A DNA stretch of 56,346 nt, counting the filler, from Bipalium vagum (Eukaryota), in NCBI GenBank assembly GCA_037834085.1. It is 3 parts of 3 records of this genome, joined end to end, with 100 filler letters (N's around TTAATTAATTAA, not from the genome) between each part and the next. Parts side by side here need not be neighbours in the genome. Positions count along the whole stretch, not along the records: positions 39,801 to 56,346 come from JBBMKC010106225.1; 2 more parts are not named here. The stretch is one strand, 5' to 3'. The notes under the pieces were generated by a model that worked only from the letters and a program-made list of their open reading frames with translations, was not told the origin of the DNA and ran no database searches. Shown here one piece after another: positions 17,029 to 56,346 of this stretch. A program made the position numbers and the translations under genes. Numbering within the stretch: position 1 is the stretch's first letter; each line of letters opens with the position of its first letter.

Positions 17029-17128
17029 NNNNNNNNNNNNNNNNNNNNNNNNNNNNNNNNNNNNNNNNNNNNTTAATTAATTAANNNNNNNNNNNNNNNN
17101 NNNNNNNNNNNNNNNNNNNNNNNNNNNN
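17029..17128. other. Assembly gap with artificial spacer
   Basis: 44 N + TTAATTAATTAA + 44 N. Confidence 0.97.
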
Positions 17129-27529: not shown

Positions 27530-29092
27530 TTATATATTTATTAAGAATTTCCGAATTCTATCTAGAGAAAATTTCAAGAAATTATTTTTAATTTCTGAAG
27601 TTCCAGTGCCAACATTATTGAGAATCATAGACGATATTTTCATTCTCATTGTGTTCTGAATATTGATTATATTTTGTTCTATTTCCACTATCATCATATT
27701 ATCCTCTACATTTCCTCGATCAATGCTTTTATCATGTTTGGCAATCTTGATGAAGATGTGATTGTAGTTGGTGAAAAAGAACAAACTTAAATCACAAATA
27801 TTTAAAAATAGTCTTTTTTCATGAGCGACTAAGTTACTGCTAAGAGCAGAGTCCGTGTCAATAAAATATTGACTAAACATTTCTTGATTTATAAGGCATA
27901 GGCGACCATAGTGTCTCCAGAAGATGGTTTGGTCCACATAAAACTTTTCTATCTCAGGTTGTGCTAACATTGTTTCCAACCTGGCTAGTAAAAAATCATG
28001 AAATTCTTTGATCCAGTCGAGAAATTTTGTGAAAGTACTGTACTGGTTATTTAATATACTATTCAAGTCAGGTCCAACAATATTGGAATATTGAAGGACT
28101 TGCTTATGAAAAGGACAAGAGATTTGTAAGCAGCCAAATCTTCGAAAGCAAAATTTACAAACTTTGTGTTCGCAAGAGGACATAGGACTTTGTGACTCTA
28201 ATCCAATATGAATATGACAGATAAGACACTGTTTCTCTGAATCTATAAACATCTCTGAAAAGTCTTCCTCACAGCTTTGTACTACTTTTAATAATGTATA
28301 TCTGAAAAGTTCCAAACTTTTCGTTATCAAAATTCTGAGGCTTAGTATATTGTTAAGTGACCTGTAACACTGTTTGTAATTAACTTCATCTAAATCTTTC
28401 ATTACTATTTCATTTATATTTGGAATCTGGATTAAAATTTTATATATGAACGAATAGTACGAATTGATCAGCTGTAATAACTGGAACAATATTTCCAACT
28501 TGCTTAAAATGAAACAAAATCCATAAGTGGTTTCTCTAGCCAAAGCGGTTTTTATGAAATCCGACGTTTTGTCTAAAGCGGACGATATCTTCCTCTCATA
28601 TTTTCTAACAGGTATAGCGCAATACTTTTTAAGTTCCGGCATGGAAGCAATTAATTGATATAATTCTACGACACCTTTGAAACTACCTTCTTCTTCTGCA
28701 TTCATCAAAGGTGTTCTCATAAAACTGAGACCAAGGTCATTTAACGACAATAGACCGGATTTCAGATTGCACAGGTTATTTTGGAACAACTTAAATATTA
28801 CTTTTAAAGGTTGAAGAGAGTTTTTAATATAAGATAAAATTTCCATGTTTAATTCCGGATGAAGAAAAGCAGCTATTAACATAGTTTTAATTTTTTCACT
28901 TGGCTTCTCAACGATTGAAAGATGGGTTATCTTAATTCGATCCATAGGACAAATTTGCTTATTATGCAACCAGTTTTCCAGACAATTTGAGCAAAATGTA
29001 TGTTTACACTTGGTTGTGGTTACCTGGTCCTCAGGTTTTATATTTTCAAAACAAATGGGACAATTGATCGATAGGTCACTGTTTGAATCCAT
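27530..29092 (-). CDS. Intronless 520-aa protein with two RING-finger-like domains (putative E3 ligase)
   Basis: CPIC-x12-CKHTFCSNC-x10-CPMD at the N-terminus and CLIC-x14-CEHKVCKFC-x10-CPFH near aa 290; 1.56-kb uninterrupted ORF in AT-rich DNA. Confidence 0.85.
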   Translation of the reverse strand: MDSNSDLSINCPICFENIKPEDQVTTTKCKHTFCSNCLENWLHNKQICPMDRIKITHLSIVEKPSEKIKTMLIAAFLHPELNMEILSYIKNSLQPLKVIFKLFQNNLCNLKSGLLSLNDLGLSFMRTPLMNAEEEGSFKGVVELYQLIASMPELKKYCAIPVRKYERKISSALDKTSDFIKTALARETTYGFCFILSKLEILFQLLQLINSYYSFIYKILIQIPNINEIVMKDLDEVNYKQCYRSLNNILSLRILITKSLELFRYTLLKVVQSCEEDFSEMFIDSEKQCLICHIHIGLESQSPMSSCEHKVCKFCFRRFGCLQISCPFHKQVLQYSNIVGPDLNSILNNQYSTFTKFLDWIKEFHDFLLARLETMLAQPEIEKFYVDQTIFWRHYGRLCLINQEMFSQYFIDTDSALSSNLVAHEKRLFLNICDLSLFFFTNYNHIFIKIAKHDKSIDRGNVEDNMMIVEIEQNIINIQNTMRMKISSMILNNVGTGTSEIKNNFLKFSLDRIRKFLINI

Positions 29093-29604
29093 ATCCTAAA
29101 TTTTTTTTTATTAAACATTAAATAAACTAATTTTTTTATTATTTTTTTAGTATTTGAATGCTCTAAAACAATAATGGAAATCTTAATTTTAAAATTTGTC
29201 TGTAAAATAAATAAAAGTTTTAAGAATTTAAAAATAATTTGACACATAAAAATGAATGTTAATGTCATAATTCGTTGATAGTTTAAAATTTTCTAAAAAA
29301 ATAATGGTTAAAATTTGATTTAGTTGGCCAAGGTCATTGTTGTTTTAATCTTTGCCTGCCGAAAAATATGATTTAAATTTTTAATTTAGACAAAGTCGTA
29401 AATTTTGAAAAGTTGCTAAATAATTTTTTACAATTATGGAATTCTGATATATATTATAACGAATAATCCTTCAGTTTATAATTTTATTTTTCAACCGAAT
29501 TTAACTACTGAAAATATTAAGTAGTGTAACTGTTATATTTACTTTTATTTCAGAATTTTGGTTAATTTCAGTTTAGAAATTAAGTAAAATAAAACACTTT
29601 ACAT

Positions 29605-34846: not shown

Positions 34847-35460
34847 TTTTTGTGAATAAAACACAACGATTTATAAATATTAGAACTTTGTCTTTTAATC
34901 TCGATGAAAATAATGCAAAATCCATTCCACAATTCAATGTTAGAATTATTAATTTATGTTTGACTCTTACAGTAATCATTTTATTGCACGTAATTGATTA
35001 TTTTCCATATTACCTTAACATTTTCAAAATTAAATAATGGTGAAATGCTTACAGAAATATAATTTAAACCGAACGCTTTAAAATGATATATAATGAGTAT
35101 TGAAACAACAAAAAATTTATATCCAAGTAACGTTAAATAAATTAGATTTATAAAAACCGATATTTATTTTTAAACAACCTAATATTATGTTATATGACCA
35201 ATTGGAAAAAGGTAATCTAATCTATGGAAATATAGATATTTCATTTTTTTCATTAATAGTTTATTGTAAAGTTTTTATTATCCGCTCTGCAAATATTCAT
35301 ATTTAAATTAAATCAATCATAAGAGGTTTTCTTTACGGACTTCTCAAACATGGGGTCGTTTTGATTGGTTGGTTTTATTTGAAATCAAATTTCTTCTTTA
35401 TTTTCATTGGATGAAAACTAAATAAAATGACGTGTCTTTTATTGGTAAATATGATTGAAA

Positions 35461-36426
35461 ATGTTATCGAATTCTCAGTTTGATAATATTTATAAAATAA
35501 TTTCTGTTTTGAGCCTAATTGTTTTATTATCGGGTTTAATTGGATGTTTTCTCATATTTTATATTCTCTATAAAGACACGACTATTCGACAATTTTCCAG
35601 GTTGCTATTTTTTCAGCAAAACGTTTTTGACACCTTAGTGATGATCATTTCTGGAATGCAGCATACCTTGTGGTCTGTTACCCAAAACTACTTTTTGTTA
35701 GACAATCTAGACCTGTGTCATTTATTTATTATTATGGAAGGTCTTTTTACTCATGGTGCGACTGTAACACTTTGCCTAATGTCCGTTGAACGGTTTATCA
35801 TTGTCACTTGGCCGACAAATGTCTATTTCAGGTCTTTGAAACTGAGGCATAATGTGATATTATTTTTTATCACAATCATTTTTTCTGTAGTTCTTATCAT
35901 CTATCCTTTTGTGAAAAATACTATCACCATGCCGTATTGCTTCTATTTAGTCGGTGTATCAGAGAGCTTCGGTTTTCTTGTTTATAGCGCCTTTCTGCCA
36001 TTCTTAGTATTATTCGTAACGACCATAAAAATTAGTTATGTACTTTGGAAAAGCTCTCGTCAGCAAAATAAGGTTTCCACAATAAATTCCGTGACATCTA
36101 ACGTAAAGAGCAATAAAAGTTCCAATTCACCTGTGTCAACATCCATTATAAAAGTCGTCATTCTTACCTCTGTCTATTACTCTGTTTGCACCGTACCATA
36201 CAGCTTCACCAGGTTCCTGTATATATTCAAACCGACTCATATGAGCCTAGAGACAATCTCATTGATCCCATTATTTGGGAAATTATTACTGATATCTAAC
36301 AGCTCCACAAGATTCATTTTCTACATTATCGGAAGTAAAAGATTCCAGATGATCATTAAATCGTTATTCGTAAAATCAAAAAATAATAATAATTCATCAA
36401 TCCACACCGTCACTCAAACCCTATGA
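35461..36426 (+). CDS. Rhodopsin-class 7TM GPCR (orphan, peptide-receptor-like), intronless, 321 aa
   Basis: Seven hydrophobic segments, TM3 Cys (DLCHL), MSVERF (DRY variant), CTVPY in TM6, NSSTRFIFY (NPxxY variant), RF in helix 8. First ATG is at 35461. Confidence 0.9.
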   Translation: MLSNSQFDNIYKIISVLSLIVLLSGLIGCFLIFYILYKDTTIRQFSRLLFFQQNVFDTLVMIISGMQHTLWSVTQNYFLLDNLDLCHLFIIMEGLFTHGATVTLCLMSVERFIIVTWPTNVYFRSLKLRHNVILFFITIIFSVVLIIYPFVKNTITMPYCFYLVGVSESFGFLVYSAFLPFLVLFVTTIKISYVLWKSSRQQNKVSTINSVTSNVKSNKSSNSPVSTSIIKVVILTSVYYSVCTVPYSFTRFLYIFKPTHMSLETISLIPLFGKLLLISNSSTRFIFYIIGSKRFQMIIKSLFVKSKNNNNSSIHTVTQTL

Positions 36427-39700: not shown

Positions 39701-39800
39701 NNNNNNNNNNNNNNNNNNNNNNNNNNNNNNNNNNNNNNNNNNNNTTAATTAATTAANNNNNNNNNNNNNNNNNNNNNNNNNNNNNNNNNNNNNNNNNNNN
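39701..39800. other. Assembly gap with artificial spacer
   Basis: 44 N + TTAATTAATTAA + 44 N. Confidence 0.97.
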
Positions 39801-39802
39801 CA

Positions 39803-40390
39803 AAATTAAATCTGGTCTCTAGAATGACAGATGGTAAAAATATTAATATTAATTTTTTGAATAGAAACTGTATAGAACTAAATTTAACAGAAGGTACAAC
39901 ACAAACCTTACAAATATATAATATACCTAATATTCCAATTTATTTATTTATTGCTTTTAGAGAAGCAGATTTTGATTATACAAAATAATAGTTTTTTATT
40001 CAAGATAAAATTAAATTGTTACAAGTTCAACTTTCTGATTCATTATATCCTATAAAACCAATAAAATTTGAAAAACGTTATAATAGTGAAACTTATTTGA
40101 ATTATGTAAATGCTTGTAAATAATTTAATAACTATCCATAATTAAGTTTATTAGAATTTCAAAATTTATATTCCATATTTTGTTTTGATTTAACGGATCA
40201 AGCAGAAAATTTATGTATCAATGGAACAAAAATTACTTTGCTTATAGAAAAAGATAATGATTTTAAAGGAATTATGAATTGTGTTTTATTAAGTGAGAAA
40301 TTTATTGAAATAAAACTTGAAGGTGGAAAGATGATTAATTTTGAAGTTAAAGCAAAAATAGATCAAATTTCAAAAAAAATCTTTTTCAAT
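39803..40390 (+). pseudogene. Polinton major capsid protein C-terminal fragment
   Basis: PIYLFIAF..QVQLSDSLYP..EFQNLYSIFCFDLT resembles the C-terminal Y..F.FDL signature of Polinton MCPs; in-frame stops. Confidence 0.65.
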
Positions 40391-41864
40391 TTTATATTTT
40401 TATATAATTATTAAATCATATAGTAATTATTAAATTTTTCTAATATTGTTTTATTGCGCTTTTTACGATATATTTTTTTCTTTTTTAGTAATATACAAAC
40501 AATTTTTTTATTAATCAACTTGTATATTTTTTGTAAATATTTTTTTAGTATAGGTATACAAATAAATATTTTTTTGATTTCATATATTAATCCAATTTGA
40601 AAATAAAAATCTTTTTATTTAGTTTTTTGATTCAATAAAAAAATATTTGTTAATATAGGTATACTAAAAAATATTTTGTAATTTGTCAAGTTATTAGGTG
40701 AGTTACATTTTTTATTTTTTTTATTAAAAAATGGTAGATTATTATTTTAGTAAATATTGTAATAAATATATTTCAAAAAATAATAAATGGAATTATGAAA
40801 AAACTAAAATACATATTGAAAAGTAAGTGTAAGTAAGGAAGTAAATAGAAAGTAAGTAATGTAAGTAAGGAAGCAAGTATTCTTAGTAAGGAAGTAAGTA
40901 ATCTAAGTGATGTGAAAATAGCAGATGATAAATTAAGTATTGCAATAAATGATTCTTTAATAAATAAATTAAACAATGAAAAAAAAGAAAAACTAATGTA
41001 AAAATCTTTATAAAAATCTTAATAAAGATAAAGATGAAAAGAAAAAAAAATAGGAGAAGCTAAAATTAATATTCATGAAGAAAATTATGAAAAAATAAAA
41101 TTAGAAATACAAAATTTTAAAAATATTATAAAAAAAATGAAGAAAAACTTAAACAAGTTAATAATTTAGAACTTAATTTAAACCAAAAAGAAAATATTGG
41201 GGATAAATTAGAAAATTTTTTTAATAATTATAAAAGAGATAATGATTTACAAAAAAATTATGAAAACTTATGTATTAAAACTGAACAATTGGAAAATTTA
41301 GAATCTAAAATATCTATTGAAACAGAAATTAAAAAATATAAAAAAAGAAATTTATTGTCTTAAAGGAGGATTAAATAAGACTGAAGAACTTATGAAAGTA
41401 ATGAACACGAGTTTTAATTTTAAATATGAAAAAAACGATTGGAAATTTGAAGAAAGAAAGTTTCTTAGAAATTGAAAAATATAAAAATTAAGTTGAAAGA
41501 TTACAAAAAATAATATTAAATACTCATGGACAAATTGATAGAATACATCAAACAGAATTTAAAGGAAAATCTATTGCAGTACAAACAGAAATTACTCGAA
41601 CAAAATTTATAAAGATATATTATGAAAATAAAAAATTATTCAAAGAAAAAAATAAAAAATTGAGGAGATGAAAGCGAACAATGCTCTTATGAAACAAAGT
41701 TTCATAGAAAAAGATAAAGAAATTTACAAAAAATTATCAAGTGAAAGAATGAAAGAAACCAACAAACCTTCATTTTGGATCATTAGATACTATGATTATT
41801 TCACAACATTTCAGTATTATTTTGTAAATAATAAACTAATTAGAGATGATTTAAAAATAAGATA

Positions 41865-42427
41865 TTAGATTGTCCAGTATGAAATTGCGGATTTTCAATA
41901 TTATTTTTAAAAAGTCAAAAACAGCTTGTAAATAAATTTTTTTAATTAACATATTTCCATTCGCTTTTGACACACTGTTGCCATCGGGACAAAACCTTTT
42001 AAATTCCTTTTTGACTTCAATTGGGCTTCATTTAAGAGGGACTTGGGTCTTCCGCGGTCTTGGTTTTGGAGATTTAGGTCCCCGTCTCGAAATTTTTTGA
42101 ACCATATCTATGTTGTTCTTTTGCTTATACTACTTTCACCTCATGCAGAATTAATGTTTCGAGTTGATTCTGATGCATTGTGGTTCAGTTTGAACTTGTA
42201 TAATATGAATACTCGAATTTGTTGATCAACCATGTCTAGTAAAGAACGATAAAAAAACTTTTACTTTAAATTAATATGCTTACTTTTATATTTATATAAA
42301 AGTTTGAAAGTTACTCTTTAATTTGGTATATATAAACAAACAATTTATTGTTAACGTTTGTGATTAACTTTAATTTGAAAATAAATATAAAATTAATAAA
42401 TCCGCAATTTCATACTGAACAACCTAA
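41865..42427 (-). mobile_element. Internally deleted mariner with both TIRs and TA TSD
   Basis: TA|TTAGATTGTCCAGTATGAAATTGCGGA ... TCCGCAATTTCATACTGAACAACCTAA|TA; minus-strand IRVFILYKFKLNHNASESTRNINSA and RGRPK. Confidence 0.9.
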
Positions 42428-42429
42428 TA

Positions 42430-44510
42430 TAATTGAATATGTTCAGTTCTTTATCCATAAAATGCTTCTTTTGGTTTTAGTTTAGATAATTCTGAATCAG
42501 TTTTAAAATTTTTAAAATCAGGATTTTCTAAAGGCTTTTCATATTCGCATTCCCATAATTCTATAACTTCTAATTTTAAATTTGTATCTTTAAAATATTT
42601 TATAATATTATTCTTTTTTTCTAAAGTTCGATTATTTAAACATTCCATTGTTTTATTTCCTCTATGTCATATTTCTTTTTTATCATAACATTTAGGGCAG
42701 CCATAAAAATAGCAACCATTAAATTCATAGATATAATGAATTTTAAAAGTTTGATCATAATAAAATCCGTCAACTTTATATGTTTTGGAAGCTTTGCTTC
42801 CAAGAGCTTCGCTTGTATTATTAACTCTAATTGTTTTTTCTCCTCCTTTGCATGTTGAATTTTTATATTATCAATTTTACTTAACTATTCTAACCAATGA
42901 ATACATTTATAATAATATATATCTTCAAAATTACTTAATCTCGGTATTCCAATTTTTTCATTATTTATCACGGACATAAATATGTTTGTAAAATTTGTGC
43001 TATTGTCATATGTTGAAAAGGATCCATATTTAAAACGTTGTCATTTGAAATATTTATGTTTAAAAGAAATCTCTATAAATTAAAAAACCTTTAGTTAAGA
43101 TCATAACATCTGTTAAACAATAATAAAACATTTGATTTTGAAAATTAAAAACTTCATTCTTTTTTTATTTTTTCATCATACAATTGTCTTAATTTTTTTT
43201 CTTTATTATTATCACTCATATAACTATAACCATAACATTCTAAATCTGGACATTTACCAATGTAATTTTGATTTTTTGTTGCATTGAAATAATGTGGACA
43301 ATATCCTTTGGAATCTTTAAAACCAAATATTTCTGGAAAAGCTTTATGGACATAAAGTAAAACTTATTGAATCTACAAATCTTATATTAAAATGTTTTAT
43401 TTGCATGTATGTGATTTTACTTCCTGACCTAATTTTTTCTACTGGCAATTTTGTTTGAATTAACAAACCTAATATTGTGTGGTTATCATATCCTTTTTGC
43501 ATAATGTGCTATTAAAGTATATATTTCAAAATCTTTACAAATAAAGAATTTACAAAATGTATCATTTAAAGAAATTGAGTCTTCAATTATTATTTCTTCA
43601 AAAAATCTATATTATCTAAAATATTTTCAATTGTTAAATTTTCTAATTTTCAGTAATAAGTTTAAAATGTGATATTATGTTTGTTTGTATTTTAAAATAT
43701 ATTTTTCTTTCTGAATCATAAGCAATTGCGTAATTCATTACATGATAACCAGCTGTTTCTTGTGTTCCTTCAAATTCAAAAAATATATTTATTACTTTGC
43801 TTAAATTTTCTTTCATTGTTTTTAAATAACATTTGTGATTATTGAATGGAGGTTTGTATTGTTCATTAAAAATTGGGCAATTCTTATTACCACACTTATG
43901 TTGACATGAATTAAAACATTCTTCATTAAAAATATCAAAAACTATTTTATATTTATAAGGTTTACAATTATCTATTTTACATTTATTACAATATTTTAAT
44001 GATTGTAAAAAAGCTATTATTTTTGTAATAGAAATAAAATGATGATTTTCTTGACCATAATAAATAAAAGTTTGTTTCTCAAATTGTTCATTTCCTCTAT
44101 ATAAAATAGAATTAGGTTGATTATTATTATGAGAATAAACTATAATTCTTATTTGTAAAAAAATTTCAAATTGTTTTAAATCACCAATATTATTTCCAGT
44201 TTCTTTAATTTCTACTTGAGCCATATTATGTAATTTTATTGCCCATTCTTCTTGAATTGGATCACCTCTTCTAATTTATCTAATTCTATTATAACGTTCT
44301 CCAAATTTTAAAAAGTTTTTGTTTTTAAAGTTTTCATAAGTTAAAGAAGTTATTATTGATCTTGCTAAACAAATTGTATCATTATTTTGAGTTATGTTAA
44401 TAGAATTCTGTACAAAATTTTGTAATATTAAATTTTTAGAATTACTTCTACTATAATTAACATAGTTTCTTTCTTTTCCAACTGGTATTGGTAAAAGTGA
44501 AAATTCAAAA
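42430..44510 (-). pseudogene. Polinton protein-primed family B DNA polymerase (N-terminal, exonuclease and insert regions; truncated)
   Basis: NDTICLARSI, FFEFEGTQ (ExoI-like), KGYD (ExoII), RFVDS, KGYCPHYFN, YCLTDV (ExoIII), DPF..TIA, VDGF..YEFNGCYFYGCPKCY, WECE, EAFYG*RTE. Confidence 0.9.
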
Positions 44511-45300
44511 ATTACAAATTTTGGCAATTATTATGGAATTTTGCATAACGTTTTGGTATAATTCAATTGAGATCATAGCGATTTGTTCCGAAATGTGGTC
44601 TTTGAGTTGTGTAATAGTTTTGGGTTGATTAATATAAACTATATCTTTTAGATATCTCCATAAGAAATAGTCTGGAGCCGTCAACTCGGCTTTGTTGCCC
44701 AAACTCAACAATTTTGTTTATTAAAAACACCTTCACTCAAGTGAAAATTACTTTCATCAGTCAATGATTTTTTTTCCAAAAATGAGGATCCGCAATTGAT
44801 CTTTCTAGCAACCAATTACAATAATTCAGGCGACTTTGATGGTCTGATTCTTTAAGCTTCATAACTACGTTAAGCTTATAGGCTTTCTTATGCAAATCTT
44901 CATGCATTATCTGCGAAAAACTGGATTTTGAGAGGTTTAATTCCTGTGCTCTATTGAGGTGCATTTATTGTCTTCAATACTCTCGCGTGTACTTGCAATA
45001 TTTTCAGGTATACGCACAGATCGAAGTCGTCCAGATTTTGGTCTGTCTGCTACCGAGCCAAATGCTTCAAAAGCATTAACCAGATTGTAAATTGTTTGTT
45101 TTGGTGGACATTTGTTTTTCCCAAATTTTGCATTTAATTTTTTAACGCTTACTGAATTTGAACTACGGCCGTGATAAAATATTTTGACAAGTTATGCCCG
45201 CTGTTGCATATTATAACGATCCAAAACTACAAGTCGAAAAATATCATCCTTTATGAGAACCGTTATAGATCCAGACGATTTAAAAGAATTGATTACTCAA
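44511..45300 (-). mobile_element. Tc1/mariner-superfamily transposase remnant nested in the Polinton
   Basis: RPKSGRLRSVRIPENI, DESNFHL, NKQN, ELTAPDYFLWRYLKDIVY (PDLTP.DFFLWGYLK type). Boundaries approximate. Confidence 0.85.
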
Positions 45301-45379
45301 GTACCCATACATGACGATATCAATTTAAGTAATTATTTTCTCGACTTGAGGCGATTTTGTAAAAAAAGTCTTAGCGACA

Positions 45380-45458
45380 TTTCTATATTTTTCTATATAT
45401 TTCTGAATAATTTTCTATATTTTTCTGAATAATTTTCTATATATTTTGAATAATTTTG
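45380..45458. repeat. Degenerate ~21-bp tandem repeat (TTTTCTATATATTTCTGAATAA-like) x3-4
   Basis: Directly visible. Confidence 0.7.
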
Positions 45459-47459
45459 TAACTCTAAATTTTTTCCAGAACAAAGTTACTATATTATTGT
45501 TTTAATATTTTAAAGTGAATCAAGGTTTGTTTATCAAATAACCAAAATTATTATTTTAATCATTTATTTATGTTATTGTTGATTAAAATTTGCATAAATA
45601 CTTGCTAAATATTTATAATTAAGGTATAAAATTATCAGATTATCTAAACTTATTTTAAATATTTGGTTTAAATTTAGGTTCTTAAAGAATCTTTATGGTT
45701 TCTCGTATGGCAATTCAGTGAAAACTGTTCACTATTTCATTTTCTATTATAGAATTGTAACCAACATATTTTTGGTAAGTATTTGTTATTTTCTATCAAA
45801 GAAATTTAGTTACTGAGATAAGAAAAAATTCTAATACTTGGTTTTTGAAGAATTATTGAAGGTTTTAATTTTGAAATAGGAAGTATATCCTTAGAAATTT
45901 CATAGCATAATATTCAAAATTTTAAGTTAATATTTAAGTTTTGTTTAGTATTTCGCTTTGATTAATTTTTTAATATAAAATTTAGATTAGAAATTTTGTT
46001 ATGTTTAGTTTACTTACCCCAGAGTTCATTTAAATAAAGAACTTAATTTATGATGAATTCTATAGATGTAATATTATCAATTCAATATGATTATTATTAC
46101 ACAATCAAATAATACTTAATGATATATGATTTTAGTATATTATAAGGTAATATTAATAATACGAGTAATATTTATTGTAATTATAAATTTTTAGCATAGG
46201 TCATATCGAGCATATTTTTGTTATGATTGAATATTATTAATATTAATAATCTGAGACAAATATTTAACAACATCGTTACTGTGCTCCTTACTAAGTTTAG
46301 TAGTCTTTATAAAAAAAACTATAATCAACCTAGCACAATAAGCTATTGTTTTTATGATAATATCTTAGCACAAGTGATCAGTCAGATATTTGTCAATAGA
46401 GCTTAGTTTCTTTTAGTAACAGCAACATTGAAATAATCAAAACAAATAAAAATGTACTTACATTGCAATTTTAAAAAAATCAAGCCCAATTTACGTTTTT
46501 CATGGTTGAATCCCACCAATTGTAAGTAGCTAAGTTGACTTTTGACTATAGCACAATCTTCTATAGACTAACATACTAACATCATAAATATTTAAAATTA
46601 TTATTTATTACAATATATTTTCTGTCAATTTTGAGATTTCAATTCTAGATGAATTTCATTTTATTTTGTTAAGTTTCTAAAGGTGGTTTTATATTATTAG
46701 GAAACTTAACACAAATATATGTTTGTCTGAAAGAATGGATGTTTATGTAACTCCGGGTCAAATATGCAAAATATGGTATTAAAATTAAATTAACTTACAC
46801 CAATTATGTTTCTAATTGATTCAAATATTCAATATTCCTTTTATTATAATAATTATATTTATTATCCATATTATCATGTATTTTTGTCAACTCGGTCAAA
46901 AAAGATACTTGATACATTTGACCGGTCAAAAAAGAGATTTGATAGTCATTTCATTAAGAAAACCGTTTTCATTATAGCACGCCCAAAAAATTATCAATCT
47001 CAAATCACCAATTATCTAGTTATTATCGCTGATCTATTTATTATTGACGAATATTGATGTTAACATTTTTTTATTCTTTGCTCTTCTAGTCAAATTTTAA
47101 GAATTCTCTTTAATCTTTTATCAATGGCCTTTGTATGAGTTTTTCTTAAATTATAGAAAAGTAATATTGATACCCACAAATGTTGTTAAGAAGAACAGAT
47201 TTATTTAATTAGATTTGAATTTTTTAAATGTTATATTTTTGTATAATTATGTGATGAATATTTTACTGAACAATATCTTTTAATACTCTTATGTAATAAT
47301 TATTTACTGCATAAATTTCCATCGCTCAGATTTATGAATATTAAATATTATAACATATAAGCTTTGTTTTAAAACATTTGTTTAAGTAAGTCATTATTGA
47401 TTATATTGATATACATTAAATCACAATTTATTTAAATTATCCGATTTATTTCAAGCAAT

Positions 47460-48790
47460 AATTATGGAAGATGATAAAATGCATATTCGCCACTACATGT
47501 TGTTCTTTTTCAATCAATGCAAAACATCTACCGAAGCAGCCAGATTAATTTACAAAACTTATAGTATTAAAACAATAGCCAAGGGCTCATGTCGAGAATA
47601 GTTAAGACTTTTTAGAAATGGTGATATTGATTAAAAGAATAGATTTGCAAGTTACTCAGCCACTAGAATTGTGTTCGGACGAGTTGGAAGCGTTTTTAAA
47701 AGAACATTCGACTCAATTGAGTGTAGACATGACGAGAAGACTGTATGATATGTTAATCATAGCAACGTACTTTGGCGGTTGAATCAGATGCGGTAAATCT
47801 GAAAGAAGGAAAAATGGATCACTCATGAACTATCACTCCTGCCACCATTTGTTTTTCGCTTCTTTGTAGACACGAACATTTCTTTTCTGTATAGAATTGT
47901 AACTGAAGACGAAAATATACATATGTATAAAGTTAAATAATTTTATGGGGTTAAGAATATCGAATTTGGTCGGTAAGTAACAACAAAATAATTTCAAATC
48001 AGAAGGCTTTATGGTGTGTAATTCGGAACAAATAAAACTCAAAAAATTTCAAAGTAATAATAAAATCGAACTTTAACAAATATGTTTATTTGTAAAAATT
48101 GGCGATTACAATTTATTTTACTAGGAAACTATTATCCTTATTATATATTTTTTATTAATATAATATAAGGCTAGTCAATGTTTTCTCAGATTAATTAATT
48201 TTTAAAAAAAAAATTTAATAATAAAAATAATAATTGTTAGTTTTTTTACAGGCTTTTGTTTTGCTGAGTTTCTTATTTTACATACACAAAAAGGAAACTG
48301 AATACAACACAATAGGTAAAGAATGATATTATTAAAATCACATAGAATGTTTAAAAAATCATTTATAAGGATAAAAAATTGTTTTTTCTTTTTGAGTCTC
48401 CATAGTATTATAATCTCAATTGCAAAAGATCATTGGTTAATCCTGGAAATATTTTTATTCACCAGGTCGTCCTGTTTATCCAGTGGGACATGACGGTGTG
48501 CTTTGTTATAAACTATTAAAACAATCTGAGGTTGTTGCTGTGGTCACCAATTGACATAGTTCAACGAGTTATTATTGCCGGACGATGATATTTTGCAAAG
48601 GCTACTGATCTATTTCATTCCATGCATCATAGTCTTTCTGATGTAAATTTTAGTAATTTTGAAGAGGTGCAGAAATTTATTGACAGTTCTATTCAAGCTT
48701 AAAGATTTTTTCCTCGGGGTTTATCATTTTTTGTATGAAAGATGGGAAAAAGCAGTTAATAATGATGGAAAATATTTTGATTAAATGTAC
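47460..48790 (+). mobile_element. Mariner fragments (N-terminal ~47465-47835, C-terminal ~48400-48785)
   Basis: KMHIRHYMLFFF..TEAARLI, KWITHEL; LFHSMHHSL, RWEKAVNNDGKYFD. Confidence 0.8.
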
Positions 48791-49200
48791 CATGTTATTT
48801 TTCTGTTATTTTTAACGTCATTTTTATTTTTACTACTGAGGTCATTTTCTGTATTTGCTTTTGTGTTTGACGTCATTACATTATGTTTAGCTCAAGTTTT
48901 CCCTTTTGTCTGGCGTCAACTCAACTTTTCTTTCTTATTTATTATTATTACTATTTTATTCATATTGTTAAGTTCCTAATAAAGATAAGTTCTTCACTCC
49001 CTCGTATGCGGATTTGTTTTAGGTCTTATTGAAAATATTAAATTTCCTGTGTCATTTAAAATTTTTATTGTTTCTGGATCTAAGCTTACTTCATAATAAT
49101 CTGTTTTTTCATATGCTGTCTTTCGATGATAGTAATTTTTATCATGAATCAACGCTTTTTCATTTTTTAACAAAATATAAAATTTTTGAAAAATACATTT

Positions 49201-49465
49201 TTACTCAAATGTTGATGGCAATATCTTTTTTGTTTCTAAATTTATAAAAAAATAATTATATTTTTTATTCATATAAAAATTAAATAAACAATCAAATTCC
49301 TCTTTTTCAATAAAAGCGGATAACATTTTTGAATAAATTTGAAACTTATCATTTTTAGAAATTTCAAATAAAATTAAAACCTTTACATTATTTCTTTTTG
49401 ATCTTAAAGGCAAATCAACAAAAGATTGTGATAAATATATTACTGAACAATTATTATGTCTTCCT
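49201..49465 (-). pseudogene. Polinton packaging ATPase, C-terminal half (split by insertion)
   Basis: GRHNNCSVIYLSQSFVDLPLRSKRNNVKVLILF, an A32/FtsK-type GRH..Q..R.N signature. Confidence 0.88.
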
Positions 49466-51139
49466 AGTAGTAGGTAAAACCATACTTTGGGGACAGGAAC
49501 CCAATTTTTTTCGGTCGCCTGGGTTGGGGGTCCCTCAAAAAATAAAAAACGTTGGGGCATATTTTTTTGACTCTTTCAGTCGCTTCGCTCCTTCAAAAGA
49601 GTCAAAAAAATATTTCCTCTCCCCAAAGTAGTTTTACCTACTACTTCATTTATTATATTTTTATATTACTAGTTTTTAAAAACTTTAAAATATCAAATTA
49701 AAAAAAAATTTAATAATTTAGGGTATTTTTCAGTTAATTTATAGAGTTTTATTGAAAAATATAAATCCCCCTTACTTATTTTAATATTATTTTGTATTAA
49801 ATAAAGTATAGTTAAATTAAAATCATTATTAAAACTTTTTAAAATTTTATTTAATAATAAAACCATTTTTATTTTATTAAAAAGTGTATTATTTAATAAA
49901 ATACTTTCATTCATGAGACATTCTTTAACTTTTTGTAATAAAACTTCTAAATTTACAGGAATTGATAAGTTGAATGCATCAATATCGTTAATAACTTTCA
50001 ATCTTTCTACAAGATTTGCTTTTAAATAAGTTTTGGTGTCTTCTAATCTAATTTTAGACTTTCTTCTGATTTTCTTTCCTATTTTCTTCTTTCGTTTTCT
50101 TTATTGCTTCAATTTCGTTGTTTATAAATTTTGGATTGAACACATTTTGGTTTGCTTCGATTATATTCCCGACATAATTGGAATACTCTTCTTTTCGTCT
50201 ACATATTTTTCTTTAATCTCTTAAAGCATAAAAAGTAGACATTTGGTTGATAATAACGTTAAATCTTGAGAAGGCTTTCTTTTGAAAGGTTCCAATATAA
50301 ATTAATGTATTACATAAAAATATAATAAGATAAGATGTTACCTTTATACATTGAAATTCAGGTTGTTAAGCAAAAATAACATTTAACACTATAGTTACAA
50401 AATAAATTAACTTAGTAAAACAACTTTACTTGACAGTTATTTTAAAATTGAGTTTTCTGTAATTCATTATTGTAAAACCTTCCAATTATTTTTTTCCCAT
50501 TTTTATCAATTATTCCATAAGCAATTGGGTTGTAAAATAAATTTCATTAATAATTAATAATTCATCATTCCATTTAGCTGTATATCCTTTGTCAAATTTA
50601 TTTTTATATTTAAAAATTCTTATATGATCTCCAATATGGAATTTTGGTTATAAAGTTAATTGAGAAATAGGTGAAATTTTAACAGTTGCTTTATTTTTTA
50701 ATTTTTCAGGATTTTTAGAAGCCTCATTAGGAGAAATACCAATTGAACTATGGATTTTATTATTATTAAAATTAATTAAATTATGTAATAAATGAATCCA
50801 TTTTCTATTTCCTTTTTCTGTAAATTTTTTAAACATTAAATTTTTTGTAATTTTATTTTTTATGGAAAAATGTAATTTTTCTATTTTTTTTTAAGAAAAA
50901 ATTTGATATTTTTAAATTTTTAAAAACTAGTAATATTAAAATATAATAAATGAAGTAGCACATAAAACCGTACTTTGAGGAGAGGAGATACTTTTTTGAC
51001 TCTTGAAGGAGCGAAGCGACTGAAAAAGAGAAAAAAAAACATGCCCCCAACGTTTTTTATTTTTTGGGGAGCCCCTCCCCCTACGCGACCGAAAAAAATA
51101 TTGGGGTCCTGTCCCCAAAGTATGGTTTTACCTACTACT
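49466..51139. mobile_element. 1,674-bp non-autonomous mini-Polinton with ~235-bp TIRs and 6-bp TSD
   Basis: CTTCCT|AGTAGTAGGTAAAACCATACTTTGGGGACAGGA ... TCCTGTCCCCAAAGTATGGTTTTACCTACTACT|CTTCCT; TIRs ~49466-49700 and ~50900-51139; carries an integrase 3' fragment. Confidence 0.93.
50440..50836 (-). pseudogene. Polinton integrase C-terminal fragment inside the mini-element
   Basis: KWIHLL..NNKIHSSIGISP, PKFHIGDHIRI, FDKGYTAKWNDE, GRFYNNELQK. Confidence 0.88.
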
Positions 51140-51300
51140 CTTCCTCGAGTGAAATACATTTCCATAATATTTTGAGTTTTTTCATTTATTATATCATCAT
51201 CAAAAATAATTAAATTTTTTAATTTCGTATCTAATTTATTAGGTGGTTGAATTTCAGTTGCTTTGTCAGATAATTTTACTTTTTTCGGACTTTTTATTCA
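51140..51300 (-). pseudogene. Polinton packaging ATPase, Walker B segment
   Basis: PPNKLDTKLKNLIIFDDDII..MEMYFTRGR joins in frame to HNNCSV after removing the insertion and one TSD copy; Walker A not seen. Confidence 0.85.
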
Positions 51301-51379
51301 ATAGCATCACCATTAAGATCTCCAGTCGCTTCCTCCTCAAATTTATATATTTTTTCATTTTTAAACATTTGACAAACTT

Positions 51380-51731
51380 TTCTCGTAAGGATCAAAATAT
51401 AGACCAGCTCCGCTGGCTGGAGTGAATCTCAACCTGATCTTTGTTTTATAATTTTGATTTTATTCTTACAAATTTTTTGTAATAAATTCTTTTCTTTCAG
51501 ATTTCTCTAAAATTTTATATTCAGAACTATTTAGAATTATCTTTTAAACCTTTTCCAAAATAAGGATCTTTTCATTCTCTGCATTATTTTTGCTGCTTCT
51601 TTTGCTTTCTGAATAGTTGTTGCAATACCTCCTGCAACTCTACCAGCTACTTCTAATCCTGCAAATATTGCTCCTAAAATTGGAATTAATGGAATAATTC
51701 CGCCTTGTTTTTTAAAATTTACATTTAACAA
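51380..51731 (-). pseudogene. Polinton adenovirus pX-like small virion protein remnant
   Basis: KKQGGIIPLIPILGAIFAGLEVAGRVAGGIATTI, followed after frameshifts by GKGL and GAGLYFDPY. Confidence 0.65.
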
Positions 51732-53029
51732 AAAATAAAATATTTTTATTTCCTAAGATAGTTTTTAAGAAAAAAACTTATTTTTAAAATTAAAATAAAT
51801 ATATTTTTATTACATCACAGCGATTTGTTATTGGTTTAAGTATAGAATGCCATTCTGTAATTTTACCAATCAAATTAAAGTTTATTTTGATCACATAAAC
51901 TCCGAATTGTTTTAAAGTTTTTCTTAATAAATTATAATGATAATCCATAATTAAAAATTTTTTATGTTTTTCAGAAAAGCATGAAAAGCGAATTTAAAAA
52001 TCAATATACTCTTTTGTATAATCGATTCCATTATTTTTCAATAATCCCATATAATTTAGTTTAGATAGGATTTTTAATTTTACAAATGCTTTTCCTTGAA
52101 TTGAATAAAATGTTTGTTGATCTTTGTAATTCTTTTTAGACGAAGATCACATTTTTAATGCCACTCAAACAATTTTTCAAATTTGATAAAGCAGATAAAT
52201 TAGACATATTTTTCACTAGTCTTGTATTATCTATCTATTCTTGAATTTAAAATTTTATTTAAAATTTTCTATTATTCATTTCTCTCTTTTTCTTCTGTTC
52301 TGTAATGATATTTTCTAATATCCTATCACTATTTGATTTTGATGAGTCCAACAAATCATCTTCATTAGGAGATACCATTTCAATATTTTCATTTTTGATT
52401 AAAAATAAATTTTTTACATTTTGTCATTATATTTTTAGACAATGATCATTTCCATAATTTAGATTTAGATAATTGGTTCATTTTTCATATTCTTTAATTT
52501 TAATTATATCCACCATTGCCTAAAAACTATAATTAAAATGAATAAATATAAATTTTAAGTAATTTATTTAATAAATCGATTTGTGACCAGTTTAGTCAAA
52601 TTTAATTTAAGAAAACCTTTTGGTTAATTTTTCTTAAATTAATTTTGAAAACAATACCTGATAATAATAAAATTTTACTTGATCTTTTTATGTTGAAAAT
52701 AATAAATAGATTTTTTTGATGATCTGTTATATATATAAATTACTAATTGTTATAGTTACTATTGACATTATAAAAATTACAAATATAACAATTAATTTCT
52801 GACATTAGCATTCTAAAAATAATGATAAAAAAAATAAATTTAAAAAATGATAAATAAATACTAAATAATAAGAAAAGTTTATGAGAAATTTAAAATTAAA
52901 TTTCCTTTCCATTTTTGTTTAACTTTTTCATATTTCATTCAATTCTAGAAAGTATTCATGTATTTTATGAGCGATTATATCTTAAAATCAAATATTTTCT
53001 TTAAGATGAAGATTTCTGAAACTCTGAGA

Positions 53030-53245
53030 CTTCAGAACTCTGAGCTACGCTGCAATTCATTCTCATAAAGTCTACCTAATATTTTTCTCCTCTTAAATCA
53101 ATAATTCCATAAACAGATGGATTTGTAAAATAAATTTCATTAATAATAAATATTTCATTTGTCCATTTTGCGGTATATCCTTTTTCAAATTTATTTTTAT
53201 AAAAATTCATACACGATCTCCACTATGAAATTTTGGTTTTGAAAG
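53030..53245 (-). pseudogene. Second Polinton integrase C-terminal fragment
   Basis: KPKFHSGDRV, NKFEKGYTAKWTNEIF, GEKILGRLYENELQR; clearly homologous to 50440-50650. Confidence 0.85.
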
Positions 53246-56200
53246 CTTTTCTTCAGAAAGCAGAGCTCGTAAGAATAATTGAGAGACAGAGGAAATTTTA
53301 TGGGTTGTGTCTACTTTTAATTTCTCATAAATAATTATTTTAACCAATTTGAATTTGTCTTATAATCATAGAATATTACGGTTTATTATCCATATAAGCT
53401 TCTTTGTAATCTGTTTATTATAGTATTTGTTTTAAAATATAGTTAGAATAGTTCTACGAACTTCACACTAACTCAATACAAAGACTCAAATTAATCAAAT
53501 AAGAAATCTAGATTGTTTGAAATAAAATTCATATTTTTGAAATCGCGATTACAAGTTTTATTTGAATTGAAATGCTTTTTCAATATTACTGAGGCTCAAA
53601 GAATGGAAAAATGGTGATGAAAAATATTAACAAACTTTCAAATGACATTGGCTGAATATTTTTTTAGTTATTGGTTATTTTATTGAGCTTATTTTCTTGA
53701 ATTATAATTTTGTATAACTGTTCATTTAAATATTTTTCTAATATTAGTTTCCGATTCCAGTAATATATTTAAATTCAATTTTCAATATATATTACTAAAA
53801 TATACTGTTTCCCGATGGAAAATTTAATACCTTTTTCAAAATTAAAATTGCTTGAGTTATTCAACATGTAATATCTCATTTCGTCTTCATTTTCAATCGA
53901 TATTAAAGAAAGACAGATACCACGTAGTTTGAATACTTTCCAATTAATTATTTTCAAAATTACAGTCAAATTGTTGATTCTTATTTTATCAGTTTCTGAT
54001 AATTTTCTTTTTCCCGAAAATATTTCACAGTTTGCAATTTGATATTTGATTTTGATGATGAATATATTAAATTTATCAAAAAGAATTTTCTCATTTTTTA
54101 TTGGTAGAAATTTCGTCAATTTGTAACAATGGAATTCATTCATACCTTGTTTGAGTTGCTTTTCCGTTATTCCAGGATGAGGAACGTTTAAAGATATAAT
54201 TCCTTTTCTTGAGGAAAATATTGTATTTAATATTCGTTATTCCTGAAAGTTTATTACTATTATGGTTAATATTTATTATTTGACTATTTATTTCTTTTAC
54301 TGTTGTGAGTGATAAGACTCTGATTTCTTCGTTTGGTAATTAATGTCCAACTTGTTGAAGTTTGCTTAAAAGACTTTCCTTCATCATCATTACAATCATT
54401 ATGTATGTACAATACATCAATGTAATACCTGATTCATATTTAAGACATTATTTCGTTGCCTAAATTTTTTTCTGCAATTCTTAATTGTAGGTTAGATAAT
54501 TGGAGTAATGTTAAAAAATTATAAAAATTATTCCAATTATGCTTCACTAATTTCATAATGCACATTATAAAATATTATTAAATTTGTATTATTGTCTATT
54601 AAGAAATAGTCTTAAATAATTATTCTTAATGCACACTAACAAATATTATTTAATTTTTGTTTTTGTACTATTACATAATTAGTCTTAATAAGATAGAAAG
54701 TTATTTTTATTACTATATACATTCATGTATTTAACATTTGATAAACATGGATAGTGAATTTTAATTGATGCAGCAGTAAGATTGAAACAAAATTCATAAA
54801 GCACTTAAGAAATAAGGAAAATTTTAAGAATACATGTAATTCAAAGCATGACGAATTAAAATATGATCATATAAAGTTTATCACACCAAAAACCTTAAAT
54901 ATTTTGAAATTGAATAAAATTATTTACTTCGATAAGACTTATTTTATATTATCAAATACTGTCTTGTATCTGATGTGTATTTTGTATATATGTTTTTACA
55001 TATTGTAATATTAGGGTTTTCGCTGACATTTTAAATGTACTGACTATGATTTAATTGATTAACAATATTATTTTCTGTCTAAAATCGTTTTAGAAACAGA
55101 AATTGGTTTTTTCTATTTTTATAAACTGATAAAACTTTATTAAAAGTAGAAAATTAATTAATATAAAGAAAATGATAAACTTTTATAAGTCAATGAAATG
55201 ATCAAGTGTTAGTTAATCAAAGATTGGAGAGAAAAGAATCATTTTGTAAATATTCTAAATTTATTCTATATTTAGTACTGTAATTTGTAAATTAAATCTT
55301 AAATGATAGTGGTTTATTAAATACTTAATACTCGAAATAATTTCTCTAAAGACGACAAATGAATATAGATGTGAGGCATAGCTAAATTAAAAACATAATG
55401 AAAAAACACCTTCGACTCGGCTTGATGATCCATAATATAATGTTTACCTAAGTGGTAGCGATAACTTTGAAGTATGATGATTGACCATGGTCATAACATT
55501 AACCTCATGAAGATTATTAAAATCTGATTAGAAAAGATGGAAAGCACGACAATTCCGATGTCACCTCTGACTCATGCGTACGTCTGTCAATGAGAATTTT
55601 GTCTAAAAAAAATAGAAAATGGCATAGTTGAGAGAAGAATGATTGTCCTAAAAAATAAAATAAAACTCATTTTTCGTAATATGGTTTTCATAGTTTATAA
55701 TACTAAAATAAGTACACAAAATAAATTGAATAAATTGTTTAATATTTAATTTTAGAGTTTCCGTGCCTATTGGATTCATAATAATGCATTATACAATGTA
55801 CTTTAGCACTGTTAAACTATTTGTCTAACTTAAGTGTAATATCAAGTATAAATGTAACAATTTTAAAATAAAACTAAGTCAAATAAAATACTAATACTAA
55901 ATTATGTTATGGTTTTAAAAAAAAATTAAAAAAACTTTTTAGTGTAAAGACAAAAATCTTTCTCTACAATATAGATTGAGTCAACATTAGATTTTCTTAA
56001 AACCAAACAGTATTTTATTGAAAAAAGTCTTTCAGTGATAGTTGAGCGTGTATGTATTGACAATTCTTGAATAATTATCTTTAACATTAAGGGAAATATT
56101 TTTTCGTTTTTAATTCAAAATTTCTTGTATAAAAAATTTCCAAAAAAACAATTAATTTCTTTGGCCAAGGGATCTTTCACGATTATATATACCTTTTATT

Positions 56201-56346
56201 AAGGTGAACCATAAGTTTTTTCGTTTTTTATTGAAAACTTAAAAACAACGTTAAACAAAAACAAAAACTTATTAAGTTTCAAAGTATAAACCATTTGCAC
56301 TAATGGTTTGAAGCCATCTATTGGAAAGTTCGCTGATCCCGCAGTG

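Follow-up and report, generated by a model that had tools for sequence, protein, structure and literature searches.

How did a 1,674-bp transposable element with the ends of a Polinton come to interrupt a gene of another Polinton? It might have moved while already small, it might have lost its interior after landing, or it might be a parasite of larger relatives. The element lies in a 56,346-nt stretch of DNA from Bipalium vagum, hereafter called the window. The element is real. It derives from a Polinton, is internally deleted and sits within the decayed remains of a Polinton from a different family; its mode of action, present or past, is like that of deletion derivatives of transposons with terminal inverted repeats (TIRs).

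The boundaries of the element are set by a target site duplication (TSD), by its end motifs and by its TIRs:

49466 to 51139, no strand assigned: mini-Polinton with (AGT)2//(ACT)2 ends, 1,674 bp, the end motif being that in PMC8097293
49460 to 49465, no strand assigned: left TSD copy, CTTCCT
51140 to 51145, no strand assigned: right TSD copy, CTTCCT
49466 to 49697, plus strand: left TIR, core of 232 nt, with weak AT-rich similarity continuing to 49718
50902 to 51139, minus strand: right TIR, core of 238 nt, with weak similarity continuing to 50874

The initial annotation had described a perfect 6-bp TSD, Polinton termini and TIRs of about 235 bp, and each of these was recovered. CTTCCT flanks both sides of the 1,674 bp, a match expected by chance with P of about 0.001, and both ends read AGTAGTAG in the inward direction. 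The 20-nt tip occurs twice in the window compared with 0.01 occurrences expected, and the alignment of the TIRs over 253 nt (left) and 266 nt (right) scores 338, whereas none of 200 shuffles exceeds 41. The cores differ by 17 substitutions in 229 columns (7.4%) and by 7 indel events; several of the differences are 2-nt indels. In the outermost 33 nt the two TIRs are the same, and all 24 differences fall in the remainder, a distribution with a chance probability of about 0.02-0.06 in a post hoc and marginal test. Identical tips would be the expected outcome of continued selection on them, to which this marginal result may point. The window holds one copy only, with neither a further copy of the element nor another match to its TIRs. 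The 27-nt tip has no match in prokaryotic genomes, which are an uninformative set for this element, and Rfam gives no match at E<=1 within 49400-51200.

Maverick ends are described as (AGT)2//(ACT)2 or (AG)3//(CT)3 with a 6-bp TSD (PMC8097293), integrases of the rve type typically generate 6-bp TSDs (PMC12220804), and Polinton TIRs range from 100 to 1,500 bp (10.1101/2023.08.22.554363). The element has (AGT)2//(ACT)2 ends, a 6-bp TSD and TIRs within that range, and its derivation from a Polinton and integration by an integrase that makes 6-bp TSDs are thus supported. In these respects, and in its c-integrase-type remnant, it is like the Polinton/Maverick group (adintoviruses, polintoviruses). 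It is unlike them in measuring 1.67 kb rather than 13-25 kb and in lacking PolB, protease, capsid and ATPase genes as well as an integrase core domain. Its 1,674 bp therefore fall far from an autonomous Polinton with intact PolB and integrase and a capsid module, and PolB homologues have no match within them.

Both TIRs also carry a feature absent from the initial annotation, namely a second, inverted tip sequence lying about 140-180 nt from the end:

49466 to 49645, plus strand: left fold-back unit, 180 nt, whose tip pairs with the inverted tip copy at 49604-49645
50954 to 51139, minus strand: right fold-back unit, 186 nt, like the left with more mismatches; inner tip copy at about 50954-50997

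Folded as single-stranded DNA, the left unit forms a long terminal stem enclosing two arms, one of them a perfect 18-bp stem, with a minimum free energy of -47.7 kcal/mol (z -10.3); the right unit reaches -33.7 (z -5.3). Neither value was attained in 200 shuffles. As controls we folded 180-nt windows outside the element at steps of 20 on the plus strand, excluding windows that contain N; the best of 2,688 gave -27.3 kcal/mol and none reached -33.7. The left and right inner copies depart from the tip in one shared difference and continue into an identical sequence, and the fold-back is therefore older than the insertion. The left fold-back is near perfect and the right heavily mismatched, an asymmetry that hairpin-templated correction or the joining of ends of two subfamilies could explain. 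Hairpin ends of the flip/flop kind were discarded as a candidate, the orientation of the inner segment being identical in both TIRs.

The 180-nt units were not inserted independently, for neither carries a TSD pair of its own, and the similarity between the TIRs runs about 52 nt beyond them with 3 substitutions. The same facts weigh against a reading that we find scarcely credible, in which Polinton DNA was captured by another TIR transposon (Ginger-like or a novel MITE) or by two 180-bp mini-elements forming a composite. Each unit does have its own (AGT)2//(ACT)2-type ends and so resembles a tiny element, and the TIR could be assigned to no full-length Polinton. Yet Ginger1 and Ginger2 have TGTNR termini and a 4-bp TSD, or 5-bp for Tdd (PMC2836005), whereas this element has other termini and a 6-bp TSD, and its ends, TSD length and cargo are all Polinton-like.

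Polinton end repeats are thought to act in adenovirus-like jumping-back priming (PMC8097293). As folded in silico, the fold-back could enable local restoration of a duplex origin or of an integrase end from a displaced strand. A by-product of one template switch is an equal possibility, and the structure could have favoured internal deletion. Copy-back defective genomes and the hairpin ends of adenoviruses and parvoviruses offer a likeness in that an internal inverted terminus is predicted to fold into a branched duplex. Unlike them, the mini-Polinton lacks a flip/flop pattern, and no Rep-type gene was found.

The interior of the element holds two coding remnants:

50445 to 50857, minus strand: Polinton-type integrase, C-terminal ~138 codons, with 1 stop and 1 frameshift; rve core domain absent
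49693 to 50100, minus strand: ORF-X, 135 open codons, 3' end within the left TIR; helical in a weak model

An integrase 3' fragment and an unknown ORF had been proposed for this interval, and both are borne out. With the 80-aa open frame 50651-50890 as query, 4 of 105 candidates scored, and the best of the homologues mapped to 50445-50857 (minus strand) has an E of 2e-31. Compared with a 397-aa rve protein, the piece corresponds to residues 256-397 (E 4e-29). It is a C-terminal fragment only of a c-integrase, and the rve domain was found in 2 of the 4 scoring homologues. Because it begins at residue 256, after the rve domain at 159-234, the element in its present form, judged by its sequence, cannot have supplied its own integrase. 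One of the homologues (P0003) has a fused N-terminal phospholipase A2-like domain (PF08398, E 6e-12), which is of a kind encoded by adintoviruses and is a further likeness to the Polinton/Maverick group. The 7 TIR indels predict 6.3 in the integrase piece, and 1-2 are observed (P 0.013-0.05).

A scan with an integrase profile gave at least 3 loci in the first 600 matches listed. One, L001 (1-1908), is a Polinton-like integrase on a 2.4-kb contig of a Roseovarius-labelled assembly; the frame beside it looks to us like a helicase with a GIY-YIG-type end, and the contig suggests a mis-binned Polinton-like virus. No useful relative of the ATPase discussed below was found among the ORFs of L001 and L003, which are 2 of these at least 3 loci.

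ORF-X, the second frame, is probably real coding DNA. An open run of 135 codons arose in 1 of 2,000 Markov simulations, and its GC3 of 0.13 is as in other Polinton pieces. An upstream extension of the frame, interrupted by a frameshift and a stop, probably reaches about 50365. None of 120 candidates proved homologous (74-237 aa), no meaningful match was found in Pfam, PHROGs, NCBIfam or phage records, and a single-sequence model (pLDDT 55.9) has no BFVD match at E<=0.001.

The element separates two open frames of the recipient:

51146 to 51297, minus strand: ATPase-like gene, upstream piece, with a Walker-B-like word at 51213
49201 to 49459, minus strand: ATPase-like gene, downstream piece, in the register of the upstream piece; Pox_A32 E=0.026, profile positions 123-169 of 242

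The element and one TSD copy together amount to 1,680 nt. Since the flanking open frames share a single register, they represent one former frame that was interrupted. The initial annotation had the element inserted into an ATPase gene; the split of a single frame holds, and the ATPase label is more provisional, drawing on motifs and a weak Pfam match. The Pox_A32 match lies under the curated cut-off, with a downstream piece that includes about 37 TIR-derived residues, and neither piece alone matches this family. Among all three minus-strand frames of 39800-56346, the Walker-B-like word is the only one of the form hhhhDD. The search revealed no strict Walker A in the gene, which is also broken upstream by a stop at 51300 and a frame change. 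None of 30 candidates proved homologous to the downstream piece. A PDB sequence search returned spurious hits at E>=0.23 for this piece and no match for the upstream one, phage records match neither, and a model (pLDDT 44.7) has no fold match at E<=0.001. The label leans partly on the usual motif layout of A32/FtsK-like packaging ATPases, which have Walker A, Walker B and an arginine-finger region. Translated on the minus strand, the element's tip (51120-51139 and 49618-49645) yields by chance a word with GKT; this satisfies a relaxed Walker A pattern, and automatic annotation of the fused frame 50920-51297 could be led astray by it.

Further pieces of the recipient, and other insertions within it, surround this gene:

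42373 to 44527, minus strand: protein-primed PolB remnant, about residues 150-900 of about 1,320
53041 to 53326, minus strand: integrase remnant, C-terminal part only, with 1 stop and 2 frameshifts
51380 to 51752, minus strand: hydrophobic glycine-rich small ORF remnant without meaningful database match
41863 to 42430, no strand assigned: internally deleted element of about 570 bp, flanked by TA and bounded by 33-bp inverted ends, that lies in the relic and adjoins the PolB remnant
44505 to 45191, minus strand: Tc1/mariner-type transposase remnant (DUF4817 HTH, E=1.9e-6), abutting the PolB remnant
47410 to 47940, plus strand: mariner transposase remnant (HTH_48 (Mos1), E=3.8e-8), inside the relic

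The PolB search scored 36 proteins, with DNA_pol_B_2 present in all 3 full-length homologues scanned. From their strand and proximity, we infer that the PolB remnant and the ATPase-like gene belonged to one element. This recipient is heavily deleted, its PolB, integrase and ATPase-like gene all being truncated, and its termini were not found in the window. We take the small ORF at 51380-51752 to resemble Polinton pX/cupiennin-like genes, the 570-bp element to be mariner-like, and DUF4817 to be tied to Tc1/mariner. At 39800-40414 (plus strand), short open frames without a family match start at an N gap and face the PolB remnant; they presumably resemble the C-terminal part of a major capsid protein from Polintons. 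Past the integrase remnant, a 153-codon open frame at 53775-54236 (minus strand), likewise without a family match, is either a host exon or a Polinton accessory gene. The mini-element and the recipient have each kept the C-terminus alone of their integrase (50445-50857 and 53041-53326), which is either coincidence or the mark of a common deletion hotspot.

Comparison of these two integrase remnants agrees with the earlier proposal that the insertion is into another Polinton. They have 80% DNA identity over 194 nt (about 20% divergence), and in 82 codons there are 17 synonymous differences at 51 sites and 36 non-synonymous differences at 195 (pS 0.33 versus pN 0.18, Fisher p=0.034). The resulting dS of 0.44 and dN of 0.21 place insert and recipient in separate families that diverged while under selection.

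The same comparison bears on the suggestion that the element parasitises helper Polintons, which we could not sustain. The recipient is of another family and deleted, and it also carries three Tc1/mariner-type remnants. At its widest reading (39800-54450, without the insert) the relic makes up 24% of the window, so one nested insertion is unremarkable. Insertions into dead DNA escape selection. A single nested copy in another family is no evidence of targeting or parasitism. We therefore consider it quite unlikely that the element is a satellite or defective-interfering Polinton that co-replicates with helpers, prefers them as targets and disables their packaging. Insertion inside a Polinton ATPase-like frame would suit such an agent, similar lesion densities permit insert and recipient to be near-contemporary, and the fold-back ends are reminiscent of copy-back defective genomes; however, the dS of 0.44 and the other remnants in the relic speak against it, and preference is not demonstrable from one insertion. 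The notion that the recipient was long dead before the insertion was dropped, the lesion densities of insert and recipient being alike.

Neither Polinton-in-Polinton targeting nor fold-back Polinton TIRs were found described in limited searches of the literature, which included PMC8502044, PMC5718144, PMC6431247, PMC8504770, PMC11296320, PMC5499653, 10.1101/2023.08.22.554363, 10.1101/2022.07.12.499685 and 10.1101/2024.01.15.575659; Repbase entries, subscription papers and supplements may differ. Retrotransposons nested in PLVs and virophages are on record (PMC12220804) and there too the gene of an endogenous virus is split by a smaller insert. They differ in that insert and recipient are here both Polintons.

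How, then, did the element become small? We give an even chance to its being a non-autonomous Polinton derivative that was already small when it moved. A full-length Polinton would have lost nearly its whole interior, including the polymerase, the capsid genes and the integrase core, while both ends were kept, and this deletion would have preceded the insertion. The (AGT)2 tips would then have been recognised in trans by the integrase of an intact relative, a putative helper that would have inserted the short element by a 6-bp staggered cut. Its arrival in a different Polinton would have involved no special targeting, and decay of both would have followed. The fold-back may have allowed a displaced single strand to restore a double-stranded end locally.

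Remnants abutting both TIRs are the usual layout of deletion derivatives, and here the integrase adjoins the right TIR (at about 45 nt from its core, where the similarity starts) and ORF-X the left. Movement at small size is favoured because of these abutting remnants, the clean block formed by the element and its perfect tips. The alternative is that a full-length Polinton inserted at this site with its own integrase and was then shortened by about 13-18 kb through one or two deletions, which the hairpin-forming TIRs may have promoted, leaving a stub that was never mobile when small. This has a substantial probability, short of even. Large deletions are common at the locus, where all identified genes of the surrounding relic are truncated, and deletion in place is plausible for that reason; in vertebrates, 96% of Maverick loci are degraded (PMC8097293). 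One event would be enough if the integrase end, ORF-X and left TIR were the native end of the parent, and simple decay fits the integrase piece, in which 1 stop is seen versus 1.0 expected from half the TIR-TIR substitution distance. On the other hand, a break within about 45 nt of the TIR edge would be unlikely with breaks uniform over 15 kb, the tips are perfect, and the element is one clean block, whereas the recipient lies in scattered pieces with secondary insertions.

Against movement at small size stands the single copy known, and lesion density also favours deletion in place. The integrase piece has 2 lesions in 138 codons and PolB at least 4 frameshifts and at least 4 stops (at least 8 in about 718), which are similar densities, and the recipient integrase, with 3 in about 95, is somewhat more decayed than that of the mini-element. 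The integrase piece is no more decayed than PolB, and a long non-autonomous existence before the insertion has thus left no trace.

A derivative of this kind would be like deleted cut-and-paste transposons and MITEs (Ds, deleted mariners) in its intact ends, deleted interior and mobilisation in trans. It would be unlike them in depending on a helper integrase of retroviral type, and possibly on protein-primed replication. The deleted mariner-like element, with both of its ends, lies 7 kb from the mini-Polinton. The N1 in Polinton family names denotes a non-autonomous element, and short non-autonomous Polintons were reportedly described by Kapitonov and Jurka in 2006. Two precedents favour a non-autonomous derivative, namely the family name Polinton-1N1_DR in PMC9341505 and the polinton-related insertions without polB reported in butterflies (10.1101/2025.02.07.637071). 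On the other side, the Polintons of Anolis apparently include no non-autonomous copies (PMC3014272). Polinton-N1A_NV encodes a capsid, so that an 'N' name is no proof of small size (PMC11296320). The Repbase-type non-autonomous Polintons are likewise short derivatives with Polinton ends and no working enzymes; unlike the one copy known here, they are multi-copy by definition.

Short stubs of Polintons, virus-like elements that normally measure 15-20 kb, are an already known kind, and the unusual part is the strong hairpin into which each end can fold. What is understood of Polinton excision, replication and integration is mainly inferential, and amplification of defective copies in some genomes has been termed perplexing (PMC8097293). 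Should this 1.7-kb element with its intact ends prove multi-copy, it would delimit the minimal signals needed in cis, and the fold-back TIR makes a concrete prediction about the replication intermediate. Under a reading that we consider unlikely, the element is one of many copies in a family of Polinton satellites of copy-back type, whose ends would each carry a 180-nt branched fold-back. One displaced strand would suffice to rebuild a double-stranded origin and integrase end, with no need for the opposite end. Such mini-genomes would be copied by the PolB of a helper and inserted by its integrase, frequently into Polinton DNA replicating alongside them, and a 180-bp unit by itself might already be mobile as a minimal element. 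If the element is a single deleted copy, it reflects ordinary decay, and the TIR structure alone is noteworthy. Elements this short would go unseen by published screens because these demand integrase and PolB 4-40 kb apart (PMC8097293), five proteins (10.1101/2023.08.22.554363) or at least 6 kb (PMC12220804).

The window around the relic is AT-rich, with a GC content of 18-40% per kb. Intron-rich RhoGEF/PH exons lie at about 2-12 kb, and long unbroken frames encode a cytochrome P450 (18000-19553), a RING-finger protein (27530-29095) and a rhodopsin-type GPCR (35455-36426), a gene set indicative of an animal. The 100-nt N-run gaps at 17029-17128 and 39701-39800 both contain an identical TTAATTAATTAA filler mid-run, and the window repeats D1, I1, I2 and I4 were set aside as artefacts of this shared TTAATTAATTAA gap filler. 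An imperfect AT-rich palindrome (70% over about 150 columns) occupies 40535-40676. Beyond it, short AAGTAAG-type repeats lie at about 40820-40910, along with Lys/Glu-rich open frames that reach about 41870.
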